Shown: positions 3,355-27,312 of the stretch, in pieces
Layout of the letters: every line of letters begins with the position of its first letter
Position numbering within the stretch: the first letter of the stretch is position 1
Source: a virus
Taxonomy: Duplodnaviria > Heunggongvirae > Uroviricota > Caudoviricetes
Direction: 5' to 3' (one strand)
Virus record (IMG/VR): IMGVR_UViG_2913128013_000001
Location: 1 to 34,296 of that record
DNA: 34,296 bases
Made by a program: the position numbers and the translations under genes
The notes under the pieces: generated by a model
The model's input: only the letters and a program-made list of their open reading frames with translations
Told to the model about the DNA's origin: nothing
The model's database searches: none

Positions 3355-3626
3355 GTATTCGTATTGAAATTGGCGAACGTTATGTCGTTACCAGTGACAG
3401 CTTTCAGTTTATTCTCCACGAGAAAAAGAGAGCGGAAAGCGGTAAAAACGCCGGTCAGGAATGGCTGGCGGTGGTTGGTTATTACCCGAAATTAAGCCAG
3501 CTCGTTTCCGGCCTGATGCATCACGATATTCTGACCGGAAGCGCAAAGTCTTTTGCTGATTTAAACGCGCAGGTTGAGCAACTCAGCAAGCGTTGTTCAG
3601 AGGCTTTTGGCTCATATGGCCGTTAA
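3351..3626 (+). CDS. Hypothetical early protein, 91 aa (P2 orf83 position)
   Basis: ORF overlapping the preceding stop (ATGA) and the A start. Confidence 0.5.
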   Translation: MSIRIEIGERYVVTSDSFQFILHEKKRAESGKNAGQEWLAVVGYYPKLSQLVSGLMHHDILTGSAKSFADLNAQVEQLSKRCSEAFGSYGR

Positions 3627-5922
3627 AGCCTCCGGGCGTTTTGTCCCTCCGTCAGCATTTGCCGCAGGCACCGGTAAGACGTTTACCGGTGCTTATGCAT
3701 GGAACGCGCCACGCGAGGCTGTCGGGCGCGAAAGACCTCTTACACGTGACGAGATGCGTCAGGTGCAAGGTGTTTTATCCACGATTAACCGCCTGCCTTA
3801 TTTTTTGCGCTCGCTGTTTACTTCACGCTATGACTACATCCGGCGCAATAAAAGCCCGGTGCACGGGTTTTATTTCCTCACATCCACTTTTCAGCATCGT
3901 TTATGGCCGCGCATTGAGCGCGTGAATCAGCGCCATGAAATGAACACCGACGCGTCGTTGCTGTTTCTGGCAGAGCGTGACCACTATGCGCGTCTGCCGG
4001 GGATGAATGACAAGGAGCTGAAAAAGTTTGCCGCCCGTATTTCATCGCAGCTTTTCATGATGTATGAGGAACTCTGCGATGCCTGGGTGGATGCGCATGG
4101 CGAAAAAGAATCACTGTTTACGGATGAGGCGCAGGATCATCTGTATGGTCATGTTGCTGGCGCTGCACGTGCTTTCAATATTTCCCCGCTCTACTGGAAA
4201 AAATACCGTAAAGGACAGATAACCACGAGGCAGGCATATTCTGCCATTGCCCGTCTGTTTAACGATGAGTGGTGGACTCATCAGCTTAAAGGCCAGCGTA
4301 TGCGCTGGCATGAGGCGTTACTGATTGCTGTCGGGGAGGTCAATAAAGACCGTTCTCCTTATGCCAGTAAACATGCCATTCGTGATGTGCGTGCACGCCG
4401 CCAGGCAAATCTGGAGTTTCTTAAATCGTGTGACCTTGAAAATAAGGAAACCGGCGAGCGCATTGACCTTATCAGTAAGGTGATGGGCAGTATTTCTAAT
4501 CCTGAAATTCGCCGGATGGAGCTGATGAATACCATTGCCGGTATTGAGCGTTACGCCGCTGCAGAGGGTGATGTGGGGATGTTTATCACGCTGACCGCGC
4601 CGTCAAAGTATCACCCGACACGTCAGGTCGGAAAAGGCGAAAGTAAAACCGTCCAGCTAAATCACGGCTGGAACGATGAGGCATTTAATCCAAAGGATGC
4701 GCAGCGTTATCTCTGCCGTATCTGGAGCCTGATGCGCACGGCATTCAAGGATAATGATTTACAGGTCTACGGTTTGCGAGTCGTCGAGCCACACCACGAC
4801 GGAACGCCGCACTGGCATATGATGCTTTTTTGTAATCCACGCCAGCGTAACCAGATTATCGAAATCATGCGTCGCTATGCGCTCAAAGAGGATGGCGACG
4901 AAAGAGGAGCCGCGCGAAACCGTTTTCAGGCAAAACACCTTAACCGGGGCGGTGCTGCGGGGTATATCGCTAAATACATCTCAAAAAATATCGACGGCTA
5001 TGCACTGGATGGTCAGCTCGATAACGATACCGGCAGGCCGCTGAAAGACACTGCAGCGGCTGTTACCGCATGGGCGTCAACGTGGCGTATCCCGCAATTT
5101 AAAACGGTTGGTCTGCCGACAATGGGGGCTTACCGTGAACTACGCAAATTGCCTCGTGGCGTCAGCATTGCTGATGAGTTTGACGAACGCGTCGAGGCTG
5201 CACGCGCCGCCGCAGACAGTGGTGATTTTGCGTTGTATATCAGCGCGCAGGGTGGGGCAAATGTCCCGCGCGATTGTCAGACTGTCAGGGTTGCCCGTAG
5301 CCCGTCGGATGACGTTAACGAGTATGAGGAAGAAGTCGAGAGAGTGGTCGGCATTTACGCGCCGCATCTCGGCGCGCGTCATATTCATATCACCAGAACC
5401 ACGGACTGGCGCATTGTTCCGAAAGTTCCGGTCGTTGAGCCTTTGACTTTAAAAAGCGGCATCGCCGCGCCTCGGAGTCCTGTCAATAACTGTGGAAAGC
5501 TCACCGGTGGTGATACTTCATTACCGGCTCCCACGCCTTCTGAGCACGCCGCAGCAGTGCTTAATCTGGTTGATGACGGTGTTATCGAATGGAATGACCC
5601 GGAGGTCGTGAGGGCGCTCAGGGGCGCATTAAAACACGGGCTGAGAACACCAAATCGTCAGCAGAGAAACGGAAGCCCGTTAAAACAGTATGAAATGGCA
5701 CCATCGGCCAGACTGACCCGGTCGGAACGAGTGCAATTTACCCGTATCCGCGTTGACCTCGCTCAGAACGGTATCAGGCCGCAGCGATGGGAGCTTGAGG
5801 CGCTGGCGCGTGGAGCAACCGTAAATTATGACGGGAAAAAATTCACGTATCCGGTCGCTGATGAGTGGCTGGGATTCTCAACAGTAATGGAGTGGACATT
5901 ATGGCAAAAATTCACGAGGTAA
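3616..5922 (+). CDS. A: Replication initiation protein A (rolling-circle endonuclease), 768 aa
   Basis: Start chosen at MAVKASGRF (ATG 3616). Large protein with an HUH-type signature (EPHHDGTPHWHMMLF) and the AAGYIAKYISKN motif typical of rolling-circle initiators; size and position match P2 gpA. Confidence 0.85.
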   Translation: MAVKASGRFVPPSAFAAGTGKTFTGAYAWNAPREAVGRERPLTRDEMRQVQGVLSTINRLPYFLRSLFTSRYDYIRRNKSPVHGFYFLTSTFQHRLWPRIERVNQRHEMNTDASLLFLAERDHYARLPGMNDKELKKFAARISSQLFMMYEELCDAWVDAHGEKESLFTDEAQDHLYGHVAGAARAFNISPLYWKKYRKGQITTRQAYSAIARLFNDEWWTHQLKGQRMRWHEALLIAVGEVNKDRSPYASKHAIRDVRARRQANLEFLKSCDLENKETGERIDLISKVMGSISNPEIRRMELMNTIAGIERYAAAEGDVGMFITLTAPSKYHPTRQVGKGESKTVQLNHGWNDEAFNPKDAQRYLCRIWSLMRTAFKDNDLQVYGLRVVEPHHDGTPHWHMMLFCNPRQRNQIIEIMRRYALKEDGDERGAARNRFQAKHLNRGGAAGYIAKYISKNIDGYALDGQLDNDTGRPLKDTAAAVTAWASTWRIPQFKTVGLPTMGAYRELRKLPRGVSIADEFDERVEAARAAADSGDFALYISAQGGANVPRDCQTVRVARSPSDDVNEYEEEVERVVGIYAPHLGARHIHITRTTDWRIVPKVPVVEPLTLKSGIAAPRSPVNNCGKLTGGDTSLPAPTPSEHAAAVLNLVDDGVIEWNDPEVVRALRGALKHGLRTPNRQQRNGSPLKQYEMAPSARLTRSERVQFTRIRVDLAQNGIRPQRWELEALARGATVNYDGKKFTYPVADEWLGFSTVMEWTLWQKFTR

Positions 5923-6559: not shown

Positions 6560-6788
6560 AGAACGCCGCCAGTCGTGAAACTTGTTTTCAGGGCTGGCGG
6601 GGTTGAACAACGAGCGAAGCGAGGCGTTAGTTGACAGTCATATTTTTACTGCGTTGGTGCTGGTTTTTGACGGTTGAAAGGAGTTAGCTCGGAGAGCTAA
6701 AGCTAACAACTTACAAATATTCAAAAGTAAGCTTCCTGTTGTTAACATAAGGTCGATTTTTTATGTGGATGATGCAAAAAGGATAGCT

Positions 6789-7520
6789 ATGGATACTGTA
6801 ATCGCTTTTCTATCACTCGCTTTTTTCGTTGCTTTTTTCATCGGGTTAATCAAACCATCACTGGTGCGGATGCCGAACCGTAAACGTGCAAGTGCGGTTT
6901 ATCTCGGAGGAGGTTTTGTATTGAGCATAATTGGTTCAATACTCTATCCAACAGAAAAAAGCCAGCCAGTTGCTAAAACTGATACATCAACCGTTGCAGA
7001 ACACCAAGTCCAAAAAACATTCGAATATGGTGGAAAAACACTCAAGGAATATCGGAACGAGCCAAAGAAAACTCGACACGATATTGTGAATAGTTACATT
7101 GATTTTAAGAAAGTGCCAGTCACCGCATCAGATGCATTTTATGCCTGCATGAGTGAATATACTTTTACCAAAGATGATGAGTTGAAACTCGGTGATGTTC
7201 TTGGGTGGTGCTTTAATGATTATGAAAATGACCCGAATTCACTAAACAATAAAATCAATCTTGATACATTTCAGAGTAATTTTAGTGGTTGGGATGGTTC
7301 TTATCGTCCATTGGAAAAACTAATTAAAGATAATATGAACGATGATTCATCTTATAAACATGTGTCAACGGTATATCATTTGGTTTTGAATAAAGACCCG
7401 CACGCCATTGTGAAAACCACATTTCGTGGCACTAATGCTTATGGAGGAGTAGTTAAACAGACTATTGCTGCGCGTGTCGACATCCGAACGGGCGAAGTCG
7501 TTTCAGTATTAGATAACTAA
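6789..7520 (+). CDS. Membrane-anchored hypothetical protein, 243 aa (cargo island A, gene 1)
   Basis: ATG at 6789 with AAGGA 6 nt upstream. Two predicted N-terminal transmembrane helices (VIAFLSLAFFVAFFIGLI and VYLGGGFVLSIIGSILYP) followed by a soluble domain of roughly 180 aa. Strongly AT-rich compared with flanking phage genes. Confidence 0.55.
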   Translation: MDTVIAFLSLAFFVAFFIGLIKPSLVRMPNRKRASAVYLGGGFVLSIIGSILYPTEKSQPVAKTDTSTVAEHQVQKTFEYGGKTLKEYRNEPKKTRHDIVNSYIDFKKVPVTASDAFYACMSEYTFTKDDELKLGDVLGWCFNDYENDPNSLNNKINLDTFQSNFSGWDGSYRPLEKLIKDNMNDDSSYKHVSTVYHLVLNKDPHAIVKTTFRGTNAYGGVVKQTIAARVDIRTGEVVSVLDN

Positions 7521-7632: not shown

Positions 7633-8922
7633 ATGAAGTTTAAGACTGAATTGAGTCGAAAATTGCATGACTCGGTAGTGTTTGATTTGAAAAAAGACCT
7701 GGTAAAATTAGAGGGAAACCTAAAAAATACAGATTTGTTGTTGTCGTTTCAGTTCAAAATAATAAGGAATATAATTAGAAGTGAAAGGATGATCAAAGGA
7801 TTAAAGTCTTTCTTAGGGGAACTAAAGGCAACAAAAAGAAAAGGTGGTTTAAAAAAAGAACAATCTAAACTTATTAAGGAAAATATTAAGAGTGTTGAGC
7901 AGGTTATTGATGATGTGAAATTTAAAATATATATCTTCAAAATGTTTGGTGATAGTGTTGCTTTTTTGTATTTGGATAAGTTTGATATTAAGCATTTTTT
8001 TTATAATGTTGTGGATTACAGTCCCAAGGAGTCAGCGGGCTATATGGGAGGGAAGGATGGCTTAAAAGAAGAATGGGGATTGGTGAAGAAGGCCTGCAAG
8101 GCTGGTGTTCCTACGTTACTCAATGATATTACAATGAGTATGAGGCATGGTGATGTTTGTTTACTTGGTGAAGGTGCACCAGTACTGGTGGAGGTGAAAT
8201 CAAGTCAAAATAAAAATGATCGTGTTGAACGTCAAAAAAATAACCTTAATAGACTAGCTGAATTTTTAGCAGAAGATAAAGCTGAAGATTTTAGAGGGAT
8301 GCCATTAGTGTTAAGGAAAGAACTGTGTTTTTCAGAAGTTACATATAAAAAAGAATTTAATGAGCATCTGAATGTATGCAGGAAAAAAGGAATTTCATGG
8401 GTAAGGCTAGAAGATGGATTTTATGTGGTATCTAATCGTGGCTGTGATCTGGAAATAGCATTATCACAGTTGGATCTTAGAGGGAGGAAAATTGCACCTA
8501 TATTTTTGAATGAATATAAAAATAATCAATTGTGGGTTCCTTTAACTCCATTTGTTAATCTTATAAATGATGCGCGTGATTTGTGTGACTTTATAAATGG
8601 GGAGTTAACTATTCTCTGTGTTCTTGATTTGGATTGTTTTAAACAAATAGCTTTGAATGAAGGGTTTGAGCTTGTTTTTGTCGATGGTGAAGACTATTCG
8701 ATGATATTTAAAGAATTTGGTAGCTCATTGATTTGGGGTGTGTCATGGCAAATGATGCTTCGCACTCCTTTAGAAATGGTGTCAATGTCTTGGTTAATTA
8801 AAGATTCAATTGATAGATTTAAGCGTTTACAAAAGCAACATGCTGAGATGCAGCCTGCCACTGATGTTAATACATCCGAAACCTCCTTGTTTGAAAAATA
8901 TAGGCCTCTTTTTACAAAGTAG
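7633..8922 (+). CDS. Hypothetical protein with PD-(D/E)xK-like nuclease motif, 429 aa (cargo island A, gene 2)
   Basis: ATG at 7633 with GAGGGAA RBS. Very AT-rich and Lys-rich. Central motif E147...D165...D174(HGDVCLLG)...E187-V-K189(PVLVEVKSS) fits the restriction-endonuclease-like fold pattern. No Walker A motif seen. Confidence 0.6.
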   Translation: MKFKTELSRKLHDSVVFDLKKDLVKLEGNLKNTDLLLSFQFKIIRNIIRSERMIKGLKSFLGELKATKRKGGLKKEQSKLIKENIKSVEQVIDDVKFKIYIFKMFGDSVAFLYLDKFDIKHFFYNVVDYSPKESAGYMGGKDGLKEEWGLVKKACKAGVPTLLNDITMSMRHGDVCLLGEGAPVLVEVKSSQNKNDRVERQKNNLNRLAEFLAEDKAEDFRGMPLVLRKELCFSEVTYKKEFNEHLNVCRKKGISWVRLEDGFYVVSNRGCDLEIALSQLDLRGRKIAPIFLNEYKNNQLWVPLTPFVNLINDARDLCDFINGELTILCVLDLDCFKQIALNEGFELVFVDGEDYSMIFKEFGSSLIWGVSWQMMLRTPLEMVSMSWLIKDSIDRFKRLQKQHAEMQPATDVNTSETSLFEKYRPLFTK

Positions 8923-20919: not shown

Positions 20920-23538
20920 ATGAGCACGAAATTTAAAACCGTTATCACTACTGCCGGAGCCGCAAAGCTGGCAGCCGCCACTGTCCCCGGCGGGAAAAAA
21001 GTAACCCTGTCTGCAATGGCCGTGGGTGACGGTAATGGCAAATTGCCGGTGCCGGATGCCGGTCAGACGAAACTGGTGCATGAGGTCTGGCGTCACGCTC
21101 TGAATAAAGTCAGCGTGGATAACAAGAATAAAAACTATATCGTGGCTGAACTGGTTGTACCGCCCGAAGTGGGCGGCTTCTGGATGCGTGAGCTTGGTCT
21201 GTATGACGATGCCGGAACACTGATTGCGGTCGCTAACATGGCAGAAAGCTATAAGCCTGAACTGGCTGAAGGCTCCGGGCGTGCGCAGACCTGCCGCATG
21301 GTCATTATTGTCAGTAACGTGGCGTCTGTTGAGCTGAGTATTGATGCCAGCACAGTGATGGCGACGCAGGATTACGTCGATGACAAAATCGCAGAACATG
21401 AGCAGTCCCGCCGCCATCCTGACGCCACGCTGACAGAAAAAGGTTTTACTCAGTTAAGCAGTGCAACAAACAGCACCAGTGAGTCATTGGCGGCAACGCC
21501 AAAAGCGGTCAAGGCAGCAAATGACAACGCAAATTCACGTCTGGCGAAAAATCAGAATGGTGCAGATATCCAGGATAAATCAGCTTTTCTGGACAATGTT
21601 GGCGTTACCAGCCTGACGTTTATGAAAAACAATGGCGAAATGCCGGTTGATGCTGATCTGAATACGTTTGGTCCTGTTAAGGCTTATTCAGGTATCTGGT
21701 CTAAAGCAACATCCACCAACGCAACACTGGAGAAAAATTTCCCGGAAGATAATGCTGTCGGTGTGCTTGAGGTTTTTGCTGCCGGAAATTTTGCAGGTAC
21801 GCAACGCTTTACCACAAGAGACGGCAATGTATACATGCGTAAACTCGCCAATAAGTGGAATGGCACTGATGGTCCGTGGGGCGTATGGCGTCACACTCAA
21901 TCAGCGACCCGCCCTTTGAGTACGACTATAGACCTGAATACGCTTGGAGCCGCCGAGCATCTTGGTTTATGGCGTAACAGTAGCTCGGCTATAGCTTCAT
22001 ATGAACGCAATTATCCAGAGGAAGGCGGCTTTGCTCAGGGGACGCTTGAGATCCTCGAAGGCGGGAATTATGGAAGAACGCAACGTTATACCACTCGCCG
22101 TGGAAATATGTACGTCCGCTGCCTTGCGGCAAGCTGGGATGCATCAAATCCGCAGTGGGAACCGTGGTTAAGAGTCGGTCATCAGTCAGAGAGTCGTTAT
22201 TACGACGGGGATTTGAATGATGTGACTTCACCAGGTATTTACAGCGTTACAGGTAAAGCGACCAACGGTCCAATACTGGACGGAAACGGCGTGACAGTCC
22301 TCGGTATTCTGGAAGTGTTGAGGCGCTTTGATGGTGTTAACGTATGGCAGCGTTATACAACTGCCGGAACAGGTACAACCCTTAAAGGTCGCACGTTTGA
22401 GCGCGTTTTTACCGGCAGCTCGTGGAGCGAATGGCGGGAAGTCTACACCTCGTATTCACTTCCCGTGAATCTGGGTATCGGCGGTGTTACAGACAGGTTA
22501 TCCAGTCTGGACTGGCAGACCTACGACTTTATACCGGGCAGCATGATAACTGTCAGGCTTTCAGATATGACCAATATTCCCGATGGGATGGAATGGGGCG
22601 TCATTGATACTAACCTGATAAATATCACTGTTGGCCCCAGTGAAGGCGGAGGTGTCGCCCGTTCAATGCAGGTATGGCGCAGCACTTCAAACAAAACCAA
22701 CTATCGTTTTTTTACAGTCCGTTTATATGGCAATCCTGGGGAGCGTAGCTTCAATATTCGTCGGCTACCAATTATCGACGAAGCCCAGACATGGGAGGCA
22801 AAACAGACATTCAGCGGTGGCCTTTCAGGTGAGCTGTCCGGCAATGCTGCTACAGCAACAAAGCTGAAAACGGCAAGGACAATTAACGGCGTAAAATTTG
22901 ACGGCTCGGCAAATATTGAAGCGTTTCCGCCAGGTGTTCCGCTGCCGTGGCCATCAGATACACCACCTGCGGGCTATGCAATTATGCAGGGGCAGACGTT
23001 TGATAAGGCAGCATATCCGAAACTGGCTATAGCCTATCCTTCTGGTGTTATTCCAGATATGCGCGGCTGGACAATCAAGGGCAAACCCGCCAGTGGGCGT
23101 GCCGTATTGTCACAGGAACAGGACGGGATTAAATCGCATACTCACAGCGCCAGTGCGTCAAATACGGATTTAGGGACGAAAACGACCAGTTCATTTGATT
23201 ACGGCACGAAGACAGTCAGTACGTTTAACTACGGAACAAAAACCACTAATACCACAGGTAACCATACACATACCATTTACAGAGGGAATGCCAATACTAA
23301 TGGTGAAACCGGTAAAACAGGCTTTGACAACCCATCGTTTAATGGCACATCAGGAGCTGCCGGGAATCATGCCCACACGGTAGATATTGGCGCACATAAT
23401 CATACGGTTGGTATTGGTGCACATTCACACACGGTTGCTATTGGCTCACACGGGCACTCTATTACCGTTAATGCTACAGGTAATACAGAAAACACCGTCA
23501 AAAACATCGCATTTAACTATATTGTGAGGCTTGCATAA
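20920..23538 (+). CDS. H: Tail fibre protein H, 872 aa (extended, mosaic C-terminus)
   Basis: N-terminal region typical of P2-like fibre attachment. Central three tandem degenerate repeats of about 60 aa (21739-22450). C-terminal His-box repeats GNHxHT / GAHxHTV (about 23137-23470). Confidence 0.85.
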
Positions 23539-24116
23539 TGGCTTTCAGAATGAGTGCAGAAGCACAAACTATCCTCGTTTTCAATTTACTTGATGGAACC
23601 AATGAGTTTATTGGCGAAAGTGATGCATATATTCCGCCGCATACAGGTCTGCCTGCAAACAGTACAGATATTGCACCACCTGATATTCCTGCTGGTTATG
23701 CAGCCGTTTTCAATGCAGATGAAATGAAATGGGAACTGATGGAAGACCATCGCGGAAAGACCGTCTACGAAACGAAAACAGGAGCAGCCATTTATATTTC
23801 TGAACTTGGCGTATTACCTCCAGATGTGACAGCTATTTCCCCGGAGGGGGATTATCAGAAATGGAACGGAAATGCGTGGGTGAATGATGAGAATGCAGAG
23901 CGTGATGCACTTGTCAGAGCGGCGGAGTCTCAGAAGAAAGAGCAGATTGTATATGCCGGTGAAATTATTGGCATGCTGCAGGATGCTGTCGATTTAGATA
24001 TGGCTACCGAGGAAGAAAAGTTAAGCCTGACACACTGGAAAAAATACCGTGTGCTACTGAATCGCGTTCAGCCGGAAAATGCCCCGGATATAGAATGGCC
24101 AGAAATGCCGCAATAA
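23538..24116 (+). CDS. G: Tail fibre assembly chaperone G, 192 aa
   Basis: TAATG-coupled to H; size and position match a P2 gpG-type Tfa chaperone. Confidence 0.75.
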
Positions 24117-24435: not shown

Positions 24436-24939
24436 GTGACAGAATTTCTTGAAAAAATGTTTGATCGTGTTTATTCGGAAAAAGACTTCAGCATTAATAT
24501 CGCCATATTTGTCTCCGGAATCGCAGGAGTTACCTGTTATCTTATTCTCCACGATTATGTACTGACGCTGTTTTCTTTTATTATTGTTTTTCCGGTTGTA
24601 AAGATTATTGCGGGAGGATTATACCTGCGAATTATTACCCTCAAGGGAGAGGCAGTTGCAGAAAAACGACTGGCAATGCTTTATAATTCTTTGACTGGAA
24701 GAGAAAAAGAAGTAGTAATGCACTTTGTGACGCATGGTGGTTCTGTTATGACATGGGGACAAATGAATAGGCTTGATGATCCTGAACCGGGTGTAGAATC
24801 TCTGGCCCGTCGTGGATTACTGAATACGTCCGTAACGATGGATGGTATGCGAGAAACGTTTGAACTAGATCTGACCCTCTTTAATTATGCATACAACTAT
24901 CACCCCCATCAGGAGAAGATGCTTACTTCAGAAGAATAA
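24436..24939 (+). CDS. Small membrane protein, 167 aa (cargo island B)
   Basis: GTG start at 24436 with AAGGA RBS (ATG alternative at 24460). Two predicted transmembrane helices in the first 60 aa, then a soluble C-terminal part. AT-rich. Confidence 0.45.
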   Translation: MTEFLEKMFDRVYSEKDFSINIAIFVSGIAGVTCYLILHDYVLTLFSFIIVFPVVKIIAGGLYLRIITLKGEAVAEKRLAMLYNSLTGREKEVVMHFVTHGGSVMTWGQMNRLDDPEPGVESLARRGLLNTSVTMDGMRETFELDLTLFNYAYNYHPHQEKMLTSEE

Positions 24940-25284: not shown

Positions 25285-27312
25285 TTACTGAAGTAAAACA
25301 TTCATTCTTTCTCTCCGATAATCCACAAGTTGTTCAATATCGCTCTCAAGACTTTCTATCCCAAAAGCAACTGAATCACTAATTTGTAGAGTGTGTTTTT
25401 TGACAACAGTGCTTTCAAAAAACTCATTTAATTGAATTGGTTTTTCAAATTGTTTAATTAAGTCAGAGGCTTGAAGCGTATTATTTTCCCATAATTTATG
25501 CATGGGGTGATTTGTGGACGTTAACGTACCATATTCATTTCTTACTTTAATTCCACTTATATGACTATTGTGCAGTATTTTGCTAAGTGCCGAATAGTCA
25601 GTTACATACACCCCATAGTATTTCCCAGGAAGTGAGAATGGAAGGTTGTTGACAATTACTGGTATAATTTCAAAGTTATTAATATCAAGGCCAAATTTAT
25701 CGCTGAATACATCCTGGTGTTTTTTTAGACCATCAGCAAGTCTGATAACTTGATTAGCTGCGTCAATTAAAAACATTTTCTTCTTGAATGCTTTAGTTAC
25801 AGAACCACCGGATAAATTTGTATTTTTACATTCCAGAACAAATACTTTATCATCTAATACAATTATTGCATCATACTCATATTCTTCATTCTCTCTTTTG
25901 AACTTAAAATGCTGATGATTTATTTTTAAATCAGAGAGCATTTCGTGGATCTCTTTTTCAAAACCAAATCCTTTTTGGGAAAGATCTACTTTTAGTGATG
26001 AGAACTTTGATAATATAATGTTACTTATTCCAGGGCTGAAATAGCCAATACTACAGAATAGATAATCTCCAGATTTCATTTTTAAAAGAGGAGAATCATA
26101 AAGGTCACGGGATTCATTGTTAAAGCTAGCCAAATCAATAAATAGCTTTGATTTATTACCAGGTATACCAACTAATTGTAAATATGTGCTCAATTCCGAT
26201 GAAGTAAATACTTCTCTTTTTTCCGATATTTTGGATAGTCTTTCTAGCGCGGAGTAACACCTAACCCATTCACGCAGTGTTAAACCAAAAATTAACATGC
26301 TCTCATCAGTTAAACATAGAGTCTCGAGTAGTGCTACATATGCCGGAAACTCTGATGTCGTTATTGAATAACCGTTATTAATATCTGCAAGCCTAGTTAA
26401 ATTTTCATCTACTGTTTTATGGACATTATGTTTATACAACGCCTCCATGAAGTTCTGTGATAACTTTGAATACAGCCTTTCATTTGACATGTAATCCAAT
26501 CTTATGAATTGTTCTTTAGTTAGATTAAATTCATAGAATGTCTCAAGACCAGCGTTCTCTAATCCATTAGGTAAGTTTGTAGAGGTATATTCATTTAATT
26601 CATAATCAAATAGCAGGCATGTTTCTACAGAACGCTCTAAAGAAGACCACAGTATCGAATTGTAAAATATTACCCCAGCATCATTAATATCATCTTCCTT
26701 AACATCTACCATGTCAGGAATTACAATGAAACCCCCACTATTTAACTTATAATTAAAGCCAATCATCTTCAAACTAAGAGATAGATAATCGACTGTTTTG
26801 GATATTACAACATCAGGAGAGTATGATTCACCTTGTTTGTTTTTTAAGTATGCGGTAGAAATATCAAACAATTTTGGTTCCCGGTTAATGCTCTCTAGAT
26901 ATTTCTTTGTTTCGTTTTTTAAAAAATCTATCTCACCTTGCGCCCGTCTTATTATAGCCCAACACTGTATTTCCGGCGTTTTTTTGCTGATGGGTAAGCT
27001 TGATAAGTTAGATTTAATAACATCAAATATTTTTTCCGCACAAATACATAGTTTTTTAAGGTTATCTATTTTTTGTATTAAATCAGGGACACTTGTAGCT
27101 CCTTTTAAGTCGGTGAGGAATGAATTTCTTTTTTCCCGTAAATTCACATTGTGGGGTTGTATATTGATGTTTTTTTTAAACATCGCAAAAAGGAAACGAA
27201 GTATTTTATCATTATAATTCTGTTTTAACTGTATCACTATGTTCTTTGACTTGAATTTGCAATAGTCGATTTCTAACGTTTTATAGATATTTTCTGCATG
27301 TGATTGTGACAT
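25285..27312 (-). CDS. Large hypothetical protein with C-terminal PD-(D/E)xK nuclease-like motif, 675 aa (cargo island B)
   Basis: ATG at 27310-27312 with AAGG RBS. Very AT-rich, opposite strand to the phage late genes. Motif GFGFEKEIHE (E452/E454)...YDAIIVLDDKVFVLECK (D481, D487/D488, E494, K496). No Walker A motif. Confidence 0.6.
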   Translation of the reverse strand: MSQSHAENIYKTLEIDYCKFKSKNIVIQLKQNYNDKILRFLFAMFKKNINIQPHNVNLREKRNSFLTDLKGATSVPDLIQKIDNLKKLCICAEKIFDVIKSNLSSLPISKKTPEIQCWAIIRRAQGEIDFLKNETKKYLESINREPKLFDISTAYLKNKQGESYSPDVVISKTVDYLSLSLKMIGFNYKLNSGGFIVIPDMVDVKEDDINDAGVIFYNSILWSSLERSVETCLLFDYELNEYTSTNLPNGLENAGLETFYEFNLTKEQFIRLDYMSNERLYSKLSQNFMEALYKHNVHKTVDENLTRLADINNGYSITTSEFPAYVALLETLCLTDESMLIFGLTLREWVRCYSALERLSKISEKREVFTSSELSTYLQLVGIPGNKSKLFIDLASFNNESRDLYDSPLLKMKSGDYLFCSIGYFSPGISNIILSKFSSLKVDLSQKGFGFEKEIHEMLSDLKINHQHFKFKRENEEYEYDAIIVLDDKVFVLECKNTNLSGGSVTKAFKKKMFLIDAANQVIRLADGLKKHQDVFSDKFGLDINNFEIIPVIVNNLPFSLPGKYYGVYVTDYSALSKILHNSHISGIKVRNEYGTLTSTNHPMHKLWENNTLQASDLIKQFEKPIQLNEFFESTVVKKHTLQISDSVAFGIESLESDIEQLVDYRRERMNVLLQ

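Follow-up and report, generated by a model that had tools for sequence, protein, structure and literature searches.

Gene H of an apparently complete Escherichia Peduoviridae prophage encodes a mosaic tail fibre with a gp37/Stf-type needle and three tandem knob domains

Results and Discussion

The tail fibre gene H described here is an ordinary, already widespread mosaic allele assembled from known modules, and we consider it highly probable that its product is a homotrimeric, recombinant chain of modules that ends in a gp37/Stf-type tip and is served by a Tfa-type chaperone. The gene lies at 20920..23538 on the plus strand of the window (the whole 34,296-nt stretch of DNA that was analysed), where a sequence-only reading had placed it, and is an intact open reading frame of 872 aa; the domains described below are likewise on the plus strand. 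Its start is 10 nt past the end of gene I (a homologue of 176 aa), and its TAA stop codon overlaps the ATG of the downstream gene G (TAATG). The open reading frames upstream of H, of 636, 348, 909 and 531 nt, have the lengths of V, W, J and I in P2-like records, and therefore place the locus at gene H of a P2-like prophage. Both the order V-W-J-I-H-G and the gene lengths agree with P2-like records, and the window as a whole holds a full complement of open reading frames sized like P2 late genes, so that H belongs to the late operon by its place in this series and by the Caudo_TAP gene that follows it. The exact protein is present in the public database as WP_130215729.1, labelled 'phage tail protein', from Escherichia sp. 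E14V7, and H is the P2-type tail fibre of an apparently complete Peduoviridae prophage of cryptic-clade Escherichia. A literature search found no paper on the H fibre itself.

The N-terminal anchor and the departure from P2 gpH

H begins with a baseplate-attachment domain (aa 1-151, 20920..21372; Pfam PF12571 Phage_tail_fib, E=1e-57) and a Phage_fiber_2 repeat that is common to P2 H and Mu S (aa 170-211, 21427..21552; Pfam PF03406, E=5.6e-21), the latter region also being matched by the Mu S structures 8JU3 and 5YVQ (E=2.5e-17 and 1.5e-15, respectively). With canonical P2 gpH (NC_001895) it shares the operon position, the N-terminal anchor and the first fibre repeat, and the two proteins are 84.5% identical over aa 1-207. 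No alignment of H with canonical P2 gpH was found past aa 207, and DNA identity between them drops beyond the anchor to ~30-40%, the level of unrelated sequence. A search of P2 gpH with the knob profile built here gave no match, and the HxH needle is also absent from it.

Canonical P2 gpH is 669 aa long, as the sequence-only reading had it, against 872 aa for H, but the additional length is not owed to repeats inserted in a P2 gpH backbone. In the domain-level alignment against P2 gpH that had been set beforehand as a check, H is not collinear after aa 207; everything downstream is instead a different set of modules. That set is common to many P2-like phages, matches of 1-1,952/1,967 nt at 87-92% identity being present in dozens of Peduovirus records.

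The C-terminal collar, needle and chaperone

The C terminus of H and the T4 gp37 needle are directly homologous. A match to the crystal structure of the T4 gp37 tip (2XGF) covers residues 653-872 at E=3e-76, and sequence identity there is 58% with T4 gp37 785-1026 and 59% with lambda Stf orf-314; the likeness to T-even 'His-box' tips proposed from the HxH motifs was thus correct, and in fact exceeds resemblance. In T4 gp37 the collar (D10) comprises residues 811-881 and 1010-1026, the stem 882-931 and 960-1009, and the tip subdomain 932-959, with seven iron ions (PMC6957217), and H was mapped onto these domain limits and onto the list of receptor-contact residues in the same paper. The N-terminal part of the collar (aa 667-738, 22918..23133; Pfam PF07484 Collar, E=2.4e-10) corresponds to T4 gp37 D10 811-881, with 54 of 71 residues identical. 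It is followed by the needle (aa 739-855, 23134..23484), corresponding to D11, with six HxH motifs and a short, unconserved distal tip at ~aa 785-816, and the domain closes with the C-terminal strand of the collar (aa 856-872, 23485..23535), in which all 17 residues are identical to T4 gp37 1010-1026, so that the needle is an insertion in a gp12-like collar. The same collar and needle, conserved C-terminal strand and HxH motifs, with a chaperone gene directly downstream, are found in T4 gp37 (2XGF) and lambda Stf, and phage records with a needle of this class number 629, those of T4, lambda and Gifsy-1 among them.

Conservation along the needle is uneven. The stem is conserved on both its ascending (35/50 residues identical) and descending (33/50) strands, whereas in H the distal tip subdomain (T4 932-959) is reduced in length and not conserved, with 4 of its 28 residues identical and just 14 positions alignable; 2 of the 11 T4 receptor-contact residues are kept. 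The HxH motifs of H begin at H740, H782, H817, H826, H835 and H844 (nt 23137-23457), three GAHxHTVxI units among them being encoded by a tandem array of 27 nt x 2.9 (23374-23450). The count of such motifs is therefore six in H, seven in T4 and eight in lambda. Each of the six aligns with an HxH position of T4, such that 6/7 T4 iron sites are kept, and the T4 H929/H931 site has no counterpart in H; MAFFT and pairwise alignments disagree on the descending-strand correspondences and on the T4/lambda sites that are missing, and it is the counts and the loss of H929/H931 that are claimed. A 10-aa YGTK repeat is present in H and lambda, without counterpart in T4. From homology to 2XGF we would predict that the HxH motifs coordinate metal in octahedral geometry in an H trimer, trimer formation itself being inferred.

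The gene in the G position (23538..24116, plus strand) encodes a tail fibre assembly chaperone of the lambda Tfa type, 192 aa in length (Pfam PF02413 Caudo_TAP, E=1.5e-39). Its full length aligns with lambda Tfa (orf-194) at 65% identity; identity to T4 gp38 is 29%, and to the chaperone of Peduovirus P24A7b 95%, while P2 G has 40% identity to it in the C-terminal half only. The tip and its chaperone are thus linked and move as a pair, as expected of this class of fibre.

Tandem knob domains in the middle region

Between the anchor and the needle the sequence-only reading had described three tandem repeats of about 60 aa, spanning 21739-22450, each of them ending in a similar motif. The three repeats stand; their length does not, the real unit being ~90-92 aa. 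The three motifs, of 15, 16 and 13 residues, are present at aa 293-307, 385-400 and 475-487 (nt 21796-21840, 22072-22119 and 22342-22380), but each falls about two thirds of the way into its unit rather than closing it, and units defined by a hidden Markov model (HMM) shift the limits of the array to nt 21634-22437. The period of ~92 aa is confirmed by a 17-nt direct repeat in the DNA which marks the first two units at a spacing of 276 nt (92 aa).

The units were delimited with a knob HMM that was seeded on the first repeat, built from homologues and then iterated once. Knob domain 1 (aa 239-324, 21634..21891; i-E=4e-40) has both fold and profile matches to R-pyocin knobs, knob domain 2 (aa 333-416, 21916..22167) is recovered at i-E=2e-35, and knob domain 3 (aa 430-506, 22207..22437) is a divergent copy, with i-E=1.2e-4 initially and 1.6e-16 after the iteration. 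Relatedness among the units was assessed on segments R1 (aa 236-326), R2 (aa 327-421) and R3 (aa 422-515), by Smith-Waterman alignment with 2000 shuffles. R1 and R2 are plainly homologous (score 180, with a mean of 26 for the shuffles, z=31, reached by 0/2000 shuffles; hhalign probability 100%, E=5e-42). R1 against R3 is marginal in pairwise alignment (z=4.4, with 3/2000 shuffles reaching the score) and R2 against R3 is not significant by pairwise Smith-Waterman alone (z=1.9), but profile-profile comparison with hhalign relates R3 to both R1 and R2 at 98.5% probability (E ~3e-15). A chance or compositional likeness among non-homologous segments could draw on this last pairwise value and on a plain blastp self-comparison of H, which listed no internal HSP (the full-length self-hit masks internal ones). 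Such an origin was tested and rejected, and we regard its probability as negligible given the z of 31 for R1-R2, the hhalign probabilities of 98.5-100% for all three pairs, the reach of the unit profile to a crystallised pyocin Knob2 at E=3e-11, and the occurrence of one to six units, mostly two, in 109 of the 149 representative proteins listed. These proteins come from a library of representatives of 50%-identity clusters, 291 of which reach E<=0.001, the unit counts having been made on the 149 listed.

Two independent lines of evidence point to the identity of the repeats. An AF2 model of aa 226-656 is of moderate confidence (mean pLDDT 67.5, ~75-85 within the repeats), and a Foldseek search of this model against solved structures returned as best matches phi11 gp45 (5EFV) and the R1 and R2 pyocin fibres (6CL5, 6CL6), at probability 1.00; all of these are listed by Buth et al. 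as Knob-fold proteins (PMC6116203). The knob fold, an antiparallel 5-6-stranded sheet with wrapping loops, was found in tandem copies. A unit profile made from 38 diverse knob units and searched against PDB sequences, with no structural model involved, likewise matched 6CL6 (E=3e-11), 6CL5 (1e-10) and 6CT8 (4e-10), as well as the F2-pyocin side fibre, the P68 fibre and Pa193 gp47. The pyocin match covers chain residues 138-206, which, counted from the construct start, is Knob2 as delimited in PMC6116203. It is important to note that, among the sequence searches, only that with the unit profile reached the pyocin structures: a single-sequence PDB search with the middle region of H found nothing, no Pfam-A or NCBIfam model matches the knob units, and NCBIfam yielded no family either for H and G as a whole or for the repeats and domain 4. 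Many homologues are named 'pyocin knob domain-containing protein' by NCBI. On profile and modelled-fold evidence, then, the repeats of H are three tandem pyocin-type knob domains. The R1 and R2 pyocin fibres (PDB 6CL5, 6CL6, 6CU2; Buth et al. 2018, PMC6116203) have two knobs as compared to three in H, and end distally in a shaft and lectin-like foot where H instead has domain 4 and a gp37-type needle.

Domain 4 (aa 517-617, 22468..22770) is a beta-rich region conserved with other P2-like H proteins and with the gp37 of the T-even phage JK23, and the representative search picks it up as a module of its own (query 292-392). No relation to the knobs was detected; comparison with them by hhalign gave probabilities of <=14%, leaving the idea of a fourth knob unsupported, and an AF2 model built for domain 4 by itself was not good enough for a fold search (pLDDT 50.7). 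Downstream is a conserved GNAATATKL fibre-repeat linker (aa 623-656, 22786..22887; query 398-431), of which as many as 11 copies occur in other fibre proteins among the matches listed. This linker adjoins the junction at which other P2-like H genes diverge, the match to P2SIDE7 stopping slightly downstream, at aa 673. The three knobs and domain 4 are also encountered together outside P2-like phages: in the T-even 'large distal tail fiber subunit' gp37 of Shigella phage JK23 (P0084) they are 56% identical over 99% of the H middle region, in a protein with a T-even N-terminus and a different C-terminal end without homology to the HxH needle, and the same block is found in a plasmid-borne fibre.

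Mosaic structure and prevalence

The suggestion that H contains a recombinant receptor-binding module is supported by the abrupt way in which identity to two sequenced P2-like phages changes along the gene. One of them, Peduovirus P24A7b (Escherichia virus P2_4A7b, LR595887 / NC_049390), encodes a fibre of 874 aa and a TfaP/TfaQ-type assembly protein, and its architecture is identical to that of H from end to end. The N-terminal 200 aa and the portion from ~aa 511 to the end are 97-100% identical to H (99.5% in the tip), whereas its knob cassette is a different allele, with 30-80% protein and 51-79% DNA identity (nt ~21520-22520). The second phage, 'P2SIDE7' (NC_070906), represents a lineage to which the knob cassette of H is ~95% identical. 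Sliding identity of H against both, in protein and DNA, resolves three blocks. Over the N-terminal anchor, from nt 20920 to ~21520, identity is 90-98% to P24A7b and 88-98% to P2SIDE7. Through the knob cassette, from nt ~21520 to 22450, it is 51-79% to P24A7b, and 79% to P2SIDE7 at the 5' edge and 89-99% thereafter. Across domain 4, the linker, the tip and G, from nt ~22520 to 24116, it is 94-100% to P24A7b, and 70-87% to P2SIDE7 as far as ~nt 22920, beyond which identity is ~30-60% and the sequences are not alignable. H is thus a recombinant between two lineages of P2-like phages, and the crossover lies just past knob 3.

This architecture is a common rather than an unusual one. Besides P24A7b, of 5,426 complete E. 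coli genomes 96 carry H and G at full length and ~95% DNA identity, and the short-tip variant of the needle is present at an identity of at least 95% in 63 of them. The exact 872-aa H forms a singleton cluster at 90% identity.

Proposed mechanism and alternative readings

In the reading that the evidence favours, H would act as a homotrimer fixed to the baseplate through its gpH-type N-terminal domain (aa 1-165), with a shaft formed by the P2/Mu fibre repeat (aa 166-233), three knobs (239-506) and domain 4 (517-617), then the GNAATATKL linker (aa 623-656) and, at the distal end, the gp37/Stf-type collar and needle (667-872). By homology to T4, three copies of each of the six HxH motifs would coordinate six metal (iron) ions buried along the axis of the needle, and the translationally coupled lambda Tfa-type chaperone would help to fold the needle. 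The distal end of the needle would contact the receptor, which may be either a sugar of the LPS core or a porin of the outer membrane. The allele itself very probably arose by homologous recombination between P2-like phages, the knob cassette coming from a 'P2SIDE7'-like phage, and domain 4, tip and chaperone arriving as one block from a P24A7b-like phage.

The receptor is the least certain part of this proposal. The needle of T4 gp37 binds both LPS and OmpC, through contacts that map to the needle tip (PMC6957217), and among its relatives in the literature Ur-lambda Stf binds OmpC and Gifsy-1 Stf binds Gal II of the LPS core. Since the characterised needle relatives bind LPS or OmpC, an LPS-core or porin receptor is our default guess for H, and like tip-mediated binding itself should be taken as an assumption. 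The T4 contact subdomain is not conserved, and for that reason the receptor of H is not predictable; a literature search found no paper on the receptor of P24A7b-type tips. A host range other than that of P2, as the sequence-only reading had proposed, is plausible, and reasonable to expect because the distal module of P2 is absent from H.

An alternative to tip-mediated binding, unlikely in our estimation yet deserving of mention, is that the knob cassette is the main determinant of host range, via lateral binding of surface glycans such as has been proposed for R-pyocin Knob2, and that the shortened needle is chiefly a chaperone-dependent nucleus for C-terminal folding, with perhaps a secondary contact. 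The flanks of the cassette are 90-100% identical to P24A7b in DNA and the knob region between them just 51-79% (30-80% in protein), as expected of a specificity cassette that is exchanged independently, and the subdomain that contacts the receptor in T4 is both truncated and unconserved in H. Furthermore, R-pyocin fibres are reported to vary most in Knob2, which apparently weighs more on the killing spectrum than does the C-terminal domain (PMC6116203). Against this, the needle-bearing fibres T4 gp37, Ur-lambda Stf and Gifsy-1 Stf all bind LPS or OmpC, with the T4 contacts at the needle tip, and the tip variant is itself kept at >=95% identity in 63 genomes. It is tempting to speculate that H has two independently exchangeable determinants, namely a three-knob cassette swapped as a unit and a 'minimal' needle without the T4 tip subdomain and one iron site, although we would give this no better than a minor chance. 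If true, H would be a natural two-site fibre, of a kind that has been proposed but not demonstrated for R-pyocins.

Far less probable still is that H is a decaying remnant in a defective prophage, its odd tip, with a lost HxH motif and a short head, reflecting degeneration. Compared with T4 and lambda, H indeed lacks one HxH site and the greater part of the tip subdomain, and the singleton status of the exact protein might be read in the same way. However, the H open reading frame is intact and translationally coupled to an intact chaperone gene, the window contains the full set of open reading frames sized like P2 late genes, and the tip is 99.5% identical in P24A7b, the record of an isolated, plaque-forming phage, as well as conserved in 63 E. 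coli genomes.

Significance

That P2, lambda, Mu and T-even phages trade fibre modules horizontally has stood in textbooks since the early 1990s, and H raises no new biological question. It does document a short-tipped, six-site variant of the gp37/Stf needle, and is a cleanly delimited natural case of recombination in P2-type fibres, with one junction following the Phage_fiber_2 repeat, a second following knob 3 and a third in the neighbourhood of the GNAATATKL linker. The practical value of this is modest. Retargeting of P2 particles, pyocins and lambda Stf chimeras makes use of these same junctions.

Modular structure of the tail fibre

With an E-value cut-off of 0.001 or below, the middle region of the tail fibre protein H matched 291 representative clusters. 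Among the matches listed (P0121-P0269, proteins retrieved in the homology searches) 109 of the 149 representatives carry between one and six of the pyocin-type knob units of H, with two complete knob triplets present in one protein (P0125). The knob unit is widespread, yet no model matching it (21634-22437 in the window) was found in the copies of Pfam-A and NCBIfam searched. Domain 4, which follows the third knob (22468-22770, aa 517-617), is beta-rich and conserved, and in other fibre proteins it is often present as a stand-alone module. Family and fold assignment of domain 4 was attempted and none was obtained, an AF2 model of the domain alone reaching a pLDDT of 50.7.

The same arrangement of three knobs and domain 4 is found, at 56% identity, at approximately aa 100-530 of gp37 of Shigella phage JK23 (P0084), the distal subunit of a T-even long tail fibre, whose C-terminal end is nevertheless unlike that of H. 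The middle shaft block is thus swapped between members of the Peduoviridae and the Straboviridae without being tied to the tip.

The needle at the C-terminal end of H contains a tandem array (23374-23450; 27-nt unit, 2.9 copies, 78% matches), and the His boxes of its descending strand, GAHxHTVxI, are the product of this array. T4, lambda and the present fibre differ in how many copies of this 9-aa unit they have, and slippage or unequal recombination at the array may therefore alter both how many metal sites the needle has and how long it is.

Open reading frames in two further intervals

Two plus-strand ORFs, of 251 aa (6765-7520) and 429 aa (7633-8922), lie between the homologue of replication gene A (3574-5922, Phage_GPA) and the portal gene, at the position of the other variable cargo locus of P2. 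Neither has a match in Pfam, and the only PHROG families that they match, phrog_3403 and phrog_14906, have no assigned function.

A 167-aa ORF on the plus strand (24436-24939), resembling a membrane protein, and a convergent 675-aa ORF on the minus strand (25285-27312), for which Pfam gives a weak match to the NERD nuclease-related domain at aa 447-531 (E=8.7e-5), are flanked by the Tfa-type chaperone gene G and the sheath gene FI, an interval that is the fun(Z) hotspot of P2. Searches of PADLOC and PHROG returned no match for either ORF. Among 5,426 complete E. coli genomes, only three contain the whole 3.6-kb cargo, under the annotation 'NERD domain-containing protein | hypothetical protein', and we consider it a candidate for uncharacterised anti-phage cargo.
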